A stretch of 64,000 bases of DNA from Burkholderiaceae bacterium (lineage in GTDB: Bacteria > Pseudomonadota > Gammaproteobacteria > Burkholderiales > Burkholderiaceae_C). A program made the translations under genes and the position numbers. The stretch lies in assembly GCA_016790575.1 (NCBI GenBank), contig JAEUOU010000006.1, positions 56,737 to 120,736 of the forward strand, in the 5' to 3' direction. Below are positions 42,857 through 46,088 of the stretch, piece by piece (position 1 is the stretch's first letter; each line of letters opens with the position of its first letter). Under the pieces are notes generated by a model. That model had not been told where the DNA came from. It was given only the letters and a program-made list of their open reading frames with translations, and did no database searches.

Positions 42857-43735
42857 ATGAGCCAGAAACGGGTCGGTGTGATTGGCGGCAGTGGCCTGTA
42901 CGCCATGGAGGCGCTGGAGCAGGCGCAGGAACAGCGGGTCCAGACCCCGTTTGGCGAGCCGTCAGACGCCATCGTCACCGGCACGGTGGCCGGGGTGCCG
43001 GTCGCCTTTCTGGCCCGCCACGGGCGGGGCCACCGGCTTTTGCCCTCGGAAGTGCCCTACCGTGCCAACATCCATGCGCTCAAGCAACTGGGCGTGCGCT
43101 ACCTGCTGTCGATGTCGGCCGTGGGGTCCCTGCGGGAAGACTTTCGCCCGCTCGATCTGGTGTTGCCCGACCAGTTCATCGACCTGACCACCCGTCGCGA
43201 CAGCACCTTTTTCGGTCAGGGTGCGGTGGCCCATGTGTCGATGGCGCAGCCCGTCTGCCCGGTGGCGGCAGCGGCGCTGGCGCACGCGGCGCGCGACGAG
43301 CTGGCGCGCGAGGGCAACCCCGACGGCGTGCGACTGCATGAATCGGGTACCTACGTCTGCATTGAAGGGCCGCAGTTTTCCAGCCTGGCGGAATCGCAAC
43401 GCTACCGGGCCATGGGCGCCGGGGTCATCGGCATGACCAACCTGCCCGAAGCCAAACTTGCCCGCGAGGCCCAGATCGGATATGCCACGCTGGCCATGGT
43501 CACCGACTATGACTGCTGGCACCCCCGCGAGGCCCATGTGACGGCCGACATGGCCTTGCAGAACCTGTTTCGCAACGCGGCGCGGGCCCAGCGGGTCGCC
43601 GCGGCCGCCATCGCGCGGCTCGGCGCCGAATGGCCCGAAAGCCCGGCCCACACCGCCTTGTCCCACGCGCTGGTCACCCAGCCCGACGCCATGGCGCCGG
43701 CCGTTCGCCAGCGCCTGGCGGCCTTGCTGGCCTGA
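42857..43735 (+). CDS. mtnP: S-methyl-5'-thioadenosine phosphorylase-like purine nucleoside phosphorylase
   Basis: RVGVIGGSGLY, FLARHGRGHRLLPSEVPYRANIHALKQLGV and GMTNLPEAKLAREA motifs. Confidence 0.85.
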   Translation: MSQKRVGVIGGSGLYAMEALEQAQEQRVQTPFGEPSDAIVTGTVAGVPVAFLARHGRGHRLLPSEVPYRANIHALKQLGVRYLLSMSAVGSLREDFRPLDLVLPDQFIDLTTRRDSTFFGQGAVAHVSMAQPVCPVAAAALAHAARDELAREGNPDGVRLHESGTYVCIEGPQFSSLAESQRYRAMGAGVIGMTNLPEAKLAREAQIGYATLAMVTDYDCWHPREAHVTADMALQNLFRNAARAQRVAAAAIARLGAEWPESPAHTALSHALVTQPDAMAPAVRQRLAALLA

Positions 43736-43760
43736 TCGCCCATCCGACGGAGCATCCACC

Positions 43761-44723
43761 ATGCATGACACCTTGCCACGCCTGACCGCCATTGCCTTTC
43801 CCCCCTTGCAGCGGGGCCGGCTGGACACCCTGCAGGTCAACCTCGGCTACCGCTGCAACCAGAGCTGCCTGCACTGCCATGTCAACGCCGGCCCGAACCG
43901 CACCGAGATGATGGACGAGGACAACATCGCCCTGATTGCCGAGGTGCTGCGCCAGCGCGGGCTGGGGACGCTGGACCTCACCGGCGGCGCGCCCGAACTG
44001 CACCCGGGCTTTCGCGCGCTGGTGCGTCAGGCGCGCGGCCTGGGTGTGCGGGTCATTGACCGCTGCAACCTGACCATCCTGTCCGAGCCCGGGCAGGACG
44101 ATCTGGCCGCCTTTCTGGCCGAGCAGGCGGTGGAAGTGGTGGCATCGCTGCCCTGCTACTCGGCAGGCAATGTCGACCGCCAGCGCGGCGACGGCGTGTT
44201 CGAGCGCAGCATCGAGGGGCTGCGGGCCCTCAACGCGCTCGGTTACGGACAGCCCGGTTCTTCCTTGCGGCTGAACCTGGTCTACAACCCGCAGGGGCCG
44301 TCCCTGCCGCCGGACCAGAAACGCCTGCAGGCGGACTATCAGCGCGAACTGGCCGAGCATTTCGGCGTGGTCTTTCACGAACTGCTGGCGCTGACCAACA
44401 TGCCCATCCAGCGCTTCGGCTCGACGCTGGTGTCCAAGGGCAGTTTCGACACCTACATGGATCTGCTGCGCGGCAGCTTCCGCCCCGAGAATCTTGACGG
44501 CGTCATGTGCCGCAGCCTGGTCAGCGTGGACTGGCAAGGCTGGCTCTACGACTGCGATTTCAACCAGCAGCTGGGTCTGCCGGCTGGCCACAGCAATGTG
44601 CGCCGCCACTTGCGCGACCTGCTGCAGCGTGACCTGTCAGGCCAGGCGATCCGTGTCGCCGGCCATTGTTATGGCTGCACGGCGGGGCAGGGAAGCAGCT
44701 GCGGCGGAGCCCTGGCGGCCTGA
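43761..44723 (+). CDS. arsS: Radical SAM/Cys-rich-domain protein of the ArsS (arsenosugar biosynthesis) family
   Basis: NLGYRCNQSCLHCHVNAGP (CxxxCxxC) and the C-terminal Cys cluster VAGHCYGCTAGQGSSCGGAL. There is no in-frame TGA, so this is the Cys form. Confidence 0.8.
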   Translation: MHDTLPRLTAIAFPPLQRGRLDTLQVNLGYRCNQSCLHCHVNAGPNRTEMMDEDNIALIAEVLRQRGLGTLDLTGGAPELHPGFRALVRQARGLGVRVIDRCNLTILSEPGQDDLAAFLAEQAVEVVASLPCYSAGNVDRQRGDGVFERSIEGLRALNALGYGQPGSSLRLNLVYNPQGPSLPPDQKRLQADYQRELAEHFGVVFHELLALTNMPIQRFGSTLVSKGSFDTYMDLLRGSFRPENLDGVMCRSLVSVDWQGWLYDCDFNQQLGLPAGHSNVRRHLRDLLQRDLSGQAIRVAGHCYGCTAGQGSSCGGALAA

Positions 44724-44751
44724 AACCCGGTGTGAACCCCGTTGCGGAGCG

Positions 44752-45432
44752 GTGGTGGTGCGGGAACTGAGCATCGTCATGCCCGTGCTTAATGAGGCGG
44801 GCGGGATCGACGCGCACCTGGCGGCGCTGCAGCCGCTGCGCGAGCGGGGCGCCGCGCTGCTGGTGGTGGACGGCGGCAGCACCGACGACACGGTGCCGCG
44901 GGTGCGCGCGCACGGCGTGACGGTGATCAGCGCGCCGCGCGGCCGGGCGCGGCAGATGAATGCCGGCGCGCAGGCCAGCGCCGGTGCCTGCCTGCTGTTT
45001 CTGCATGCCGACACCCGCCTGCCGCCGCAAGCCGACCAGGCGATTGCCCGTGCCCTGGCGAGCGGTGCCGACTGGGGCCGTTTCGACGTGCGGATTGCCG
45101 GGCGGCATCCGCTGCTGCCGGTGATTGCGGCGCTGATGAACTTGCGCTCCCGGGCGACCGGCATTGCTACGGGTGATCAGACCATCTTCGTGCGGCGCAG
45201 TGCGTTCGACGCTGTGGGAGGGTTTCCCGACCAGCCCCTGATGGAAGACATCGAGATCTCGCGCCGCCTGCGCGCGCTGTCTGCGCCGGCCTGCCTGCGC
45301 CAGCGGGTGAGCACGTCGGGCCGCCGCTGGGAAAGCCGGGGTGCCTGGCGAACCATGGTGCTGATGTGGCAGTTGCGCTGGGCGTACTGGCGCGGCGAGT
45401 CGCCCGAGCGCCTGGCGGAGCGCTACCGTTGA
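44752..45432 (+). CDS. GT2-family glycosyltransferase (rSAM/selenodomain-associated transferase 1 type)
   Basis: LSIVMPVLNEAGGI, LVVDGGSTDDT and LFLHADTRLP are typical of GT-A. The GTG start at 44752 is a best guess. Confidence 0.75.
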   Translation: MVVRELSIVMPVLNEAGGIDAHLAALQPLRERGAALLVVDGGSTDDTVPRVRAHGVTVISAPRGRARQMNAGAQASAGACLLFLHADTRLPPQADQAIARALASGADWGRFDVRIAGRHPLLPVIAALMNLRSRATGIATGDQTIFVRRSAFDAVGGFPDQPLMEDIEISRRLRALSAPACLRQRVSTSGRRWESRGAWRTMVLMWQLRWAYWRGESPERLAERYR

Positions 45433-45437
45433 GTGGC

Positions 45438-46088
45438 GTGTGGCCCCCGCTGCCCGGCGCGCCGGCCGCACTTTTGGCCCGGCGGGCGCCGGTGCAGCTG
45501 GTGGTCATGGCCAAAGCGCCCCAGCCAGGTCTGGCCAAGACCCGGCTGGCGCCGGCACTTGGCCTGGAGGGCGCCGCGTTGCTGGCGCGGCACATGCTGG
45601 CGCATGCGCTGCAGCAGGCGCGGGCCAGCGCCGCCGGACCGGTGGAGCTGTGCATGAGCCCGCCGCCGGACGATCCGGCCTGGGCCGGCGTGGATCGGGA
45701 TGGTGTCGACACCTGTACCGATCAGGGTCCGGGTGATCTGGGCCGGCGCATGGCCCGCATCGTGGCCCGCCATGCGCCGATGCGGCCGGTGCTGATTCTG
45801 GGCACCGATTGCCCGGCGCTGGATCAGGGCATCATTGCGGCGGCGGCGGCGGCGCTGGCCGACCACGACGCCGCACTGGTGCCCGTGCGCGACGGCGGCT
45901 ACGTGCTGATCGGCCTGCGCGCACCGTGTGAGCCGGTTTTTGCCGACATGCCGTGGAGCACCCCGGCGGTGTTTGCCGAAACCGTGCGCCGGCTGGGGCA
46001 GCAAGGCCGATCGGTCTGGACCGGCCCGATGCTCAGCGATGTGGACGAGCCCGCCGACCTGGAAAACGTCCCGTCCGGCTGGATTTGA
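45438..46088 (+). CDS. DUF2064 (CofC/MobA-like nucleotidyltransferase-fold) protein (rSAM/selenodomain-associated transferase 2 type)
   Basis: LVVMAKAPQPGLAKTRLAP, ILGTDCPAL, and PVRDGGYVLIGL. The start is uncertain (TTG 45429 or GTG 45438). Confidence 0.65.
   Translation: MWPPLPGAPAALLARRAPVQLVVMAKAPQPGLAKTRLAPALGLEGAALLARHMLAHALQQARASAAGPVELCMSPPPDDPAWAGVDRDGVDTCTDQGPGDLGRRMARIVARHAPMRPVLILGTDCPALDQGIIAAAAAALADHDAALVPVRDGGYVLIGLRAPCEPVFADMPWSTPAVFAETVRRLGQQGRSVWTGPMLSDVDEPADLENVPSGWI

Follow-up and report, generated by a model that had tools for sequence, protein, structure and literature searches.

In the genome of a Burkholderiaceae bacterium (GenBank assembly GCA_016790575.1) we examined a stretch of 64,000 nucleotides (contig JAEUOU010000006.1, positions 56,737 to 120,736), which is called the window here and to which all coordinates refer, and in it an operon of four genes, all on the + strand (42857-46088), that includes the gene for ArsS, an enzyme of arsenosugar biosynthesis that is of the radical SAM (S-adenosylmethionine) type. 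We consider it likely, with a probability of about 0.7, that this operon is a copy, lacking the arsenite methyltransferase gene arsM, of a conserved proteobacterial operon for arsenosugars (dimethylarsinoyl ribosides). Support for the arsenosugar reading comes from the four proteins themselves, which were scored against the cut-offs of NCBI's curated hidden Markov models (HMMs) and against Pfam, and which all pass the cut-offs of families that NCBI names arsenosugar biosynthesis or MTAP:

42857..43735, + strand: MTAP-type purine nucleoside phosphorylase, 292 aa, operon gene 1; TIGR01694, 307.7 bits (cut-off 274.85); Pfam PNP_UDP_1
43761..44723, + strand: ArsS, 320 aa; TIGR04167, 455.9 bits (cut-off 300), residues 16-318; Pfam Radical_SAM and DUF3641
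44752..45432, + strand: GT2-family glycosyltransferase, 226 aa; TIGR04283, 274 bits (cut-off 182); Pfam Glycos_transf_2
45429..46088, + strand: DUF2064 protein with a nucleotidyltransferase-like fold, 219 aa; TIGR04282, 183.9 bits (cut-off 134); Pfam DUF2064

A previous, sequence-only reading of this DNA had proposed the same four open reading frames, and their positions, the HMM matches and an independent gene call all bear them out: they lie at the coordinates it gave, and on a metagenome contig of the Joint Genome Institute (JGI) that encodes an identical ArsS protein the corresponding genes were called at 292, 320, 226, and 219 aa. The intergenic gaps in the operon measure 25-28 nt, and the start of the DUF2064 gene overlaps the stop codon of the GT2 gene. 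That reading had also seen in the 43761-44723 protein a CxxxCxxC motif together with a C-terminal cysteine cluster. Both are present, the former as RCNQSCLHCHV (C32-x3-C36-x2-C39) and the latter as GHCYGCTAGQGSSCGGALAA, and the assignment to ArsS, which it had asked to be checked by HMM, holds at the score listed above, with the DUF3641 domain at 183.9 bits in Pfam. Among 27 diverse members of the family, four cysteines do not vary (C250, C265, C303, and C306) and C314 is kept in at least 90%; C32, C36, and C39 are conserved as well. The names that it gave to the two transferases, “rSAM/selenodomain-associated transferases 1 and 2,” were right; these are TIGR04282 and TIGR04283, which NCBI now names arsenosugar biosynthesis glycosyltransferases. 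The solved structure that best matches the MTAP, 4GLF (369 bits), is an MTAP from a soil metagenome, and human MTAP (1CB0) matches at 226 bits. For the GT2 protein the closest solved structures are glucosyl-3-phosphoglycerate synthases (GpgS), the match being confined to the N-terminal region. The DUF2064 protein is homologous to PDB entry 3CGX, a “putative nucleotide-diphospho-sugar transferase” (E 9e-17), and has weaker matches to the models for CofC (48.7 bits), NTP_transf_3 and MobA-like nucleotidyltransferases.

The closest relatives of the operon bear on its substrate. Among named organisms, those closest by ArsS are Polaromonas and Rhodoferax (77-78% identity), which makes the source a betaproteobacterium resembling Comamonadaceae. 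A five-gene operon in the order MTAP-ArsS-GT2-DUF2064-ArsM occurs in Polaromonas, in a Hylemonella metagenome-assembled genome (MAG) and in two further lineages (loci L006, L087-L091, L095, and L096). The ArsM that adjoins ArsS in the Polaromonas MAG L006, a long sequence of the AS3MT type, falls in a cluster of proteins that is common among Comamonadaceae, and the Polaromonas representative of this cluster was found on 17 contigs, always as the fifth gene of the operon. In Polaromonas, the DUF2064 gene and arsM overlap by 4 bp. The window shares the gene order of this operon and, with Polaromonas, also the string of divergent genes for a VTT-MerA fusion, a DUF3047 protein and an oxidoreductase; unlike the five-gene form, however, the operon of the window ends at DUF2064, and from downstream a bufferin cluster converges on it. 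The window proteins are 76-78% (ArsS) and 74-76% (MTAP) identical to those of arsM-plus and arsM-minus operons alike, the four-gene comparators without arsM being those of Rhodoferax sp. AJA081-3 (CP059068) and Polaromonas glacialis. Six out of 10 long ArsS-containing proteins, which are more distant members of the family, are fusions of ArsS and ArsM, in both domain orders and with the cysteine motifs of ArsM intact. Furthermore, 22 ArsS sequences linked or fused to ArsM have 91 alignment columns with a conservation of at least 90%, and in every one of these the window ArsS and also six arsM-less relatives are unchanged; across these columns and sequences we found no position that separates arsM-less from arsM-linked copies. 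The sequence-only reading had regarded the substrate as open (As, Se, or S). In our comparison of sequences, the orthologous operons that end in arsM, the fusions and the conserved columns speak against this, and the closest relatives settle the element for which the operon would have been built as arsenic.

Several observations weigh against the arsenosugar reading. There is no ArsM gene in the window: a tblastn search of the 64 kb with 12 ArsM sequences of four subtypes returned nothing beyond a generic resemblance to Rossmann-fold methyltransferases, at 31.7-32.2 kb, and family models run on the open reading frames of the window turned up no gene of ars resistance or regulation, so that the remark of the sequence-only reading that no ArsM or ars genes were in view extends to the whole 64 kb. 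The operon lies beside selenium genes, both in the window and in its nearest relatives. In a survey of 80 loci, obtained from a scan of one genome per species, with an ArsS 60-81% identical to that of the window (beta-, gamma-, alpha-, and zetaproteobacteria, Oligoflexia, and Cyanobium), MTAP adjoins ArsS in just nine, so that it is maybe a housekeeping gene, and in 16 a protein of 342 aa, not MTAP, comes after ArsS. In the literature searched, no enzyme of the operon beyond homologues of ArsS has been characterised, and the 15 best-ranked papers of a search pairing arsenosugar with these taxa did not contain the word “arsenosugar.” The methyltransferase of 209 aa encoded at 31661-32290 was considered as an ArsM, since it has weak matches in the ArsM family, and rejected; it has neither the cysteine motifs nor the length of ArsM and sits in the egt/sen cluster described below.

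Linkage of ArsS to ArsM in related loci

The neighbors of ArsS in the 80 loci were counted by tblastn of the 10-kb flanks around the gene:

GT2 within 10 kb of ArsS: 55 of 80 loci
DUF2064 within 10 kb of ArsS: 50 of 80 loci
VTT-MerA fusion within 10 kb of ArsS: 42 of 80 loci
TIGR03169-like oxidoreductase near ArsS: 18 of 80 loci
DUF3047 near ArsS: 18 of 80 loci
DUF547 near ArsS: 11 of 80 loci
MTAP next to ArsS: 9 of 80 loci
ArsM family within 10 kb of ArsS: 14 of 80 loci (without in 66 of 80)
SelD near ArsS: 2 of 80 loci

The same gene proportions are seen in the 52 loci that have at least 5 kb on both sides (ArsM in 9 of them), and GT2, DUF2064, and VTT-MerA co-localise with ArsS across the alpha-, beta-, gamma-, and zetaproteobacteria. 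The sequence-only reading had treated the lack of arsM as remarkable and had suggested that the neighborhood be profiled. The profile does not bear this out: with arsM absent from the 10-kb flanks in 66 of the 80 related loci and present in orthologous operons, linkage to ArsM is not a strict requirement of the ArsS family, and a missing arsM is ordinary and common and no pointer to new chemistry. The linkage of the two genes is nevertheless real, since chance alone would bring a single-copy gene to within 10 kb of a particular other gene in far fewer than 1% of genomes. Of the 14 ArsM-family genes near ArsS, 13 share its strand, usually in one operon with it. They fall into four subtypes, one of which scores 545 bits (cut-off 400) against NF038099, the model named “arsenosugar biosynthesis arsenite methyltransferase.” An in-frame stop in the arsM of L018 is TAA and not TGA; a selenocysteine reading was, therefore, rejected in favor of an error or a pseudogene.

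It could be argued that the operon is a decaying, non-functional remnant left after arsM was lost. The gene is indeed missing from the window, and loss events do occur. In P. glacialis (L086, KL448323), transposases of the IS110 and IS1595 families flank the four-gene operon (locus positions 7866-8879 and 13205-14179); one insertion sequence (IS) replaces the arsM-AstE-DinB segment of the sister Polaromonas L087 and the other lies between the VTT-MerA gene and MTAP, a pattern that looks like a recent, secondary loss of arsM associated with IS elements. In the window, however, the four reading frames are intact and tightly spaced or overlapping, and every conserved position of ArsS is kept. Moreover, its layout, the four-gene operon followed by the bufferin cluster, recurs in L094, and L005 and L093 are also arsM-less and flanked by bufferin genes but without MTAP. 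Because this layout is conserved in separate lineages, the arsM-less form seems to be a maintained variant rather than debris, and we consider decay highly improbable.

Comparison with known systems places the operon close to, but apart from, the ArsM-ArsS arsenosugar pathway of Synechocystis sp. PCC 6803 (Xue et al., 2017, 2019; Cheng et al., 2021, as cited in PMC12159101 and PMC13598754). The ArsS proteins belong to the same family (TIGR04167), with the radical SAM and DUF3641 domains and the same cysteine pattern, and the ArsS of Cyanobium is 68-69% identical to that of the window. In Synechocystis, however, arsS is co-transcribed with arsM, whereas the window has its ArsS between MTAP and two transferases in 64 kb devoid of arsM, with MTAP as the first gene and with redox and membrane genes transcribed divergently. 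Of the arsenosugar set of NCBI (TIGR04167, TIGR04283, TIGR04282, and NF038099), the window has three of the four families, adjacent and above cut-offs, but no ArsM of the NF038099 type; MTAP, the VTT-MerA fusion, DUF547, DUF3047, and the TIGR03169 oxidoreductase stand outside this set and yet co-localise with ArsS. Radical SAM chemistry also makes a C-As bond in a second pathway, the ArsL/ArsM pathway of arsinothricin, in which ArsL moves a 3-amino-3-carboxypropyl group to inorganic As(III), where ArsS moves 5'-deoxyadenosyl to dimethylarsenite (PMC13598754; 2026 preprint). For the methyltransferases adjacent to ArsS in L065 and L073, the ArsM model of arsinothricin gives the highest score, 350-360 bits, which is below its cut-off of 500.

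Proposed route to an arsenosugar

ArsS cleaves SAM reductively, and the 5'-deoxyadenosyl radical is added to dimethylarsenite, DMAs(III), in a redox-neutral reaction that gives DDMAA, or 5'-deoxy-5'-dimethylarsinoyl-adenosine (PMC13598754). The experiments on this step concern members of the family elsewhere (PMC13598754); of the adenine, the 2026 preprint says that it “can then be removed,” without naming an enzyme for this. In the organism studied here, ArsS would adenosylate trivalent dimethylarsenite with the 5'-deoxyadenosyl group of SAM, the dimethylarsenite being supplied by an ArsM from another part of the genome or by methylarsenicals from neighboring organisms. The MTAP-type phosphorylase would then remove adenine from DDMAA by phosphorolysis, yielding 5-deoxy-5-dimethylarsinoyl-alpha-ribose-1-phosphate. 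The DUF2064/TIGR04282 protein, for which there are hints at the level of the fold, could turn this arsenoribose-1-phosphate into a nucleoside diphosphate (NDP) sugar, and the inverting GT2 enzyme could move the sugar to a glycerol-type acceptor, giving a beta-riboside as in natural arsenosugars. The genes divergent from the operon might, more speculatively, keep arsenicals reduced (pentavalent methylarsenicals) or serve a lipid or membrane step. MTAP enzymes yield alpha-ribose-1-phosphates and GT2 enzymes invert configuration; arsenosugars found in nature are beta-ribofuranosides with glycerol-type aglycones, and the proposed chain is, therefore, consistent in its stereochemistry. A route of adenosylation, phosphorolysis, activation and glycosyl transfer had already been suggested in the sequence-only reading from the gene order. 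It appears chemically coherent, and the MTAP-ArsS pairing on which it draws is kept in beta- and gammaproteobacteria despite differing flanks. In the literature searched, key subscription papers excepted, we found no assignment of an enzyme to a step after ArsS and no arsenosugars from these heterotrophs. The four-gene operon may work without a cellular ArsM, by scavenging toxic methylarsenite or dimethylarsenite from neighbors and converting it to harmless arsenosugars.

The phosphorylase deserves separate consideration. DDMAA resembles methylthioadenosine (MTA), and an MTAP that keeps its place beside ArsS is a natural candidate for the removal of adenine. Like MtnP of methionine salvage, the window MTAP matches TIGR01694 above the cut-off and has MTAP structures as its nearest PDB entries; unlike MtnP, it is encoded in an ArsS operon and its proposed substrate would be the arsenic analogue of MTA. 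An alternative explanation starts from the former likeness: MTAP would be a co-transcribed housekeeping enzyme of MTA salvage, some other enzyme would deadenylate DDMAA, and the transferases would perhaps act without an NDP-sugar, the part of the reading that concerns ArsS being right. The protein indeed scores above the cut-off of the equivalog model of ordinary MTAP, and the PDB entry nearest to it is the MTAP from a soil metagenome mentioned above; in addition to the few loci in which MTAP adjoins ArsS, the two closest relatives, L005 and L093, have no MTAP at this position, and the other protein, of 342 aa, takes the place after ArsS in 16 loci. On the other hand, MTAP is found directly upstream of ArsS in L006, L007, L085-L092, and L094-L096, the pairing outlasts a complete turnover of the flanks (L085, L087, and L092) and recurs in a different class, in the gammaproteobacterium Microbulbifer (L016 and L027), and DDMAA is a close structural analogue of MTA. 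We consider the housekeeping role rather unlikely, while deserving more weight than the other alternatives, and prefer MTAP as the enzyme that would release adenine in the window.

The MTAP route may, however, not be universal among ArsS loci, given how few of these have MTAP and how many have the protein of 342 aa. The family to which the latter belongs (ca. 342 aa, without a match in Pfam or NCBIfam) is encoded close downstream of ArsS in these 16 loci (e.g., L046:10947-11975), directly after it in several, and is not found in the window. Most of these loci have no adjacent MTAP (exceptions are L011 and L026), and the protein may be an alternative enzyme that processes the product of ArsS. 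An assignment of this family as a metallophosphoesterase was dropped as neither Pfam nor NCBIfam supported it.

Selenium genes and other neighbors of the operon

The sequence-only reading had noted a pathway for a selenium metabolite at a distance of 9 kb from the operon. This is correct, as the EgtB/SenA-like gene ends at 33603 and the genes for SenB and SelD lie at 23-25.6 kb; the region 23073-33603 as a whole is a cluster of the selenoneine/ergothioneine type:

23073-24251, - strand: SelD, 541.9 bits (cut-off 299)
24149-25585, - strand: SenB; TIGR04348, 429.7 bits (cut-off 300)
26645-27643, - strand: EgtD
27857-31255, + strand: “putative selenate” ABC transporter
31283-31636: small multidrug resistance (SMR) pump
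31661-32290: methyltransferase of 209 aa
32110-33603: EgtB/SenA-like gene; EgtB 559.6 bits (cut-off 360), SenA 352.9 bits (cut-off 420)

In this cluster, SenB and SelD stand with a gene that passes the cut-off of EgtB but falls short of that of SenA, so that a clear SenA is missing. As a hint to the substrate, for which the earlier reading had taken it, this neighborhood loses its force since it recurs in only a few Comamonadaceae loci. A selenium version of the pathway would nevertheless have some appeal. ArsS would then adenosylate a methylated selenium compound or another soft nucleophile, and the resulting Se-ribose derivative would be tied to SelD, SenB, and EgtD. No arsM is found in the window, and SelD, SenB, EgtD, the EgtB/SenA-like gene and the “putative selenate” transporter are encoded 9-20 kb upstream of the operon. 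The divergent operon of L005 and L093, the closest relatives, has SelD immediately after the gene for the TIGR03169 oxidoreductase, and in the Hylemonella locus L011 both SenB and a gene resembling SelD are present within 10 kb. The TIGR04167 family, moreover, includes selenoproteins (PMC13188914). However, SelD is near ArsS in only two of the 80 loci, and these, together with L093 and the window, all belong to the Comamonadaceae, so that shared synteny explains the proximity. Sister lineages carry arsM inside the same operon, and the window ArsS is unchanged at every conserved position. The selenocysteine of some family members replaces a cysteine of the enzyme itself (C314 here) and says nothing of the substrate, and the literature searched contains no paper that joins radical SAM chemistry, selenium, and the formation of a C-Se bond. 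Nine homologues of ArsS whose alignments stop near residue 314 were checked as possible selenoproteins; all nine carry a cysteine and an ordinary stop. We, therefore, regard the selenium version as very unlikely. The chance is just as slim for its narrower form, in which ArsS would have been recruited to methylated selenium, yielding Se-ribosides, in an arsM-less sub-lineage that lives amid SelD, SenB, EgtD, and the selenate transporter (the window, L005, L093, and L011), although, if true, Se-ribosides would be an unknown class of selenium metabolite.

Upstream of the operon, and divergent from it, lies a second set of genes:

42630..42856: divergent intergenic region, with an inverted repeat inside
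40467..42629, - strand: VTT/DedA membrane domain fused to a MerA-like flavoprotein disulfide reductase, 720 aa; VTT_dom, Pyr_redox_2, and Pyr_redox_dim
39644..40465, - strand: DUF547 protein; PF04784
38938..39699, - strand: DUF3047 protein; PF11249, on the gene call of the metagenome contig with the identical ArsS
37802..38941, - strand: TIGR03169 (“N-terminal to SelD”) pyridine nucleotide-disulfide oxidoreductase, 355 bits (cut-off 310)
34899..37805, - strand: distal genes for a protein of 463 aa (no Pfam domain, weakly ATP-grasp-like), a YHS-domain protein and a patatin-like lipase

The VTT-MerA gene is often found within the ArsS operon itself, and the first four of the divergent genes are interleaved with ArsS in single operons elsewhere (e.g., L013). 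The VTT-MerA fusion, the DUF547 and DUF3047 proteins and the TIGR03169 oxidoreductase, therefore, probably share the pathway of ArsS; VTT-MerA and its companions are the most consistently ArsS-linked genes that have no assigned role. The distal genes are different: across the 80 loci the gene for the protein of 463 aa was found once and those for the YHS-domain protein, which belongs to a family that includes selenoproteins, and the patatin-like lipase not at all, and these three are probably not core to the ArsS system.

The inverted repeat between the two gene sets, TTCTTACA-N43-TGTAAGA at 42681-42738, matches once in the window and not at all in 100 shuffles. Its half-sites, TTCTTACA and TGTAAGAA, are found again with spacers of 16-19 nt in the homologous region beside the VTT-MerA start in Polaromonas (L006 and L086-L089), and the repeat may be a putative operator. 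An RNA structure at this position was dropped as a candidate, since the sequence folds no better than when shuffled (z = 0.55). Consensus scans of the operon for promoters and terminators gave nothing above background, and scans of the whole window with Rfam at gathering thresholds and for tRNAs gave no match.

Downstream, the operon is met by a convergent bufferin-type cluster for a ribosomally synthesized and post-translationally modified peptide (RiPP; 46222-48802, - strand) with a BufA1/DUF2282 precursor, an MbnB-like DUF692 protein, an HvfC_N/DUF2063 protein and DoxX. The adjacency of bufferin genes and ArsS is also seen in L005, L093, and L094 and in the more distant L010, L013, L018, L029, and L040, which suggests a recurring neighborhood for metal or metalloid stress. 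The bufferin cluster is followed at 49492-50366 (+ strand) by genes for an extracytoplasmic function (ECF) sigma factor (NF009173, 288 bits; TIGR02943 family) and a zf-HC2 anti-sigma factor, with housekeeping genes beyond. In 13 of the 80 loci, genes for related sigma factors lie no more than a few kb from ArsS, several of them directly upstream, and the ECF sigma factor could be a regulator of the ArsS cluster, of the bufferin cluster, or of both. Further downstream, at 55318-58034 (- strand), a ribose-phosphate diphosphokinase-like gene (NF005537) accompanies a “putative thymidine phosphorylase”/AMP-phosphorylase-like gene (NF003338, 704 bits); as far as we can tell, this pair is a second system of the nucleoside-phosphorylase type, apparently unrelated to the operon. 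At the other end of the window, positions 1-21500 have a lower GC content (45-58% vs. 65-73% elsewhere) and hold a polysaccharide/nonulosonic-acid cluster with genes for NeuB, a cytidylyltransferase-aldo/keto reductase fusion, Asn-synthase-like and heparinase II/III-like proteins, a flippase, aminotransferases, and glycosyltransferases; this is probably a horizontally acquired island for a surface glycan.

Implications for a possible arsenosugar biosynthesis in heterotrophs

The absence of arsM from the operon adds little in itself, and a specialist who knows the family names of NCBI will not be surprised by the arsenosugar reading, which makes the operon a useful lead rather than a discovery. 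Its value lies in the steps that follow ArsS. In the literature searched, an enzyme has been assigned only to the first committed step of arsenosugar formation, ArsS. The operon described here, and the five-gene form in cultivable Polaromonas, name candidates for what would come next, i.e., MTAP for the removal of adenine, the DUF2064 protein as nucleotidyltransferase, and an inverting GT2 enzyme. Arsenosugars may thus be made by heterotrophic freshwater Comamonadaceae and not just by cyanobacteria and algae, and the arsM-less variants pose a testable ecological question, namely whether their carriers detoxify methylarsenicals that are made by others.

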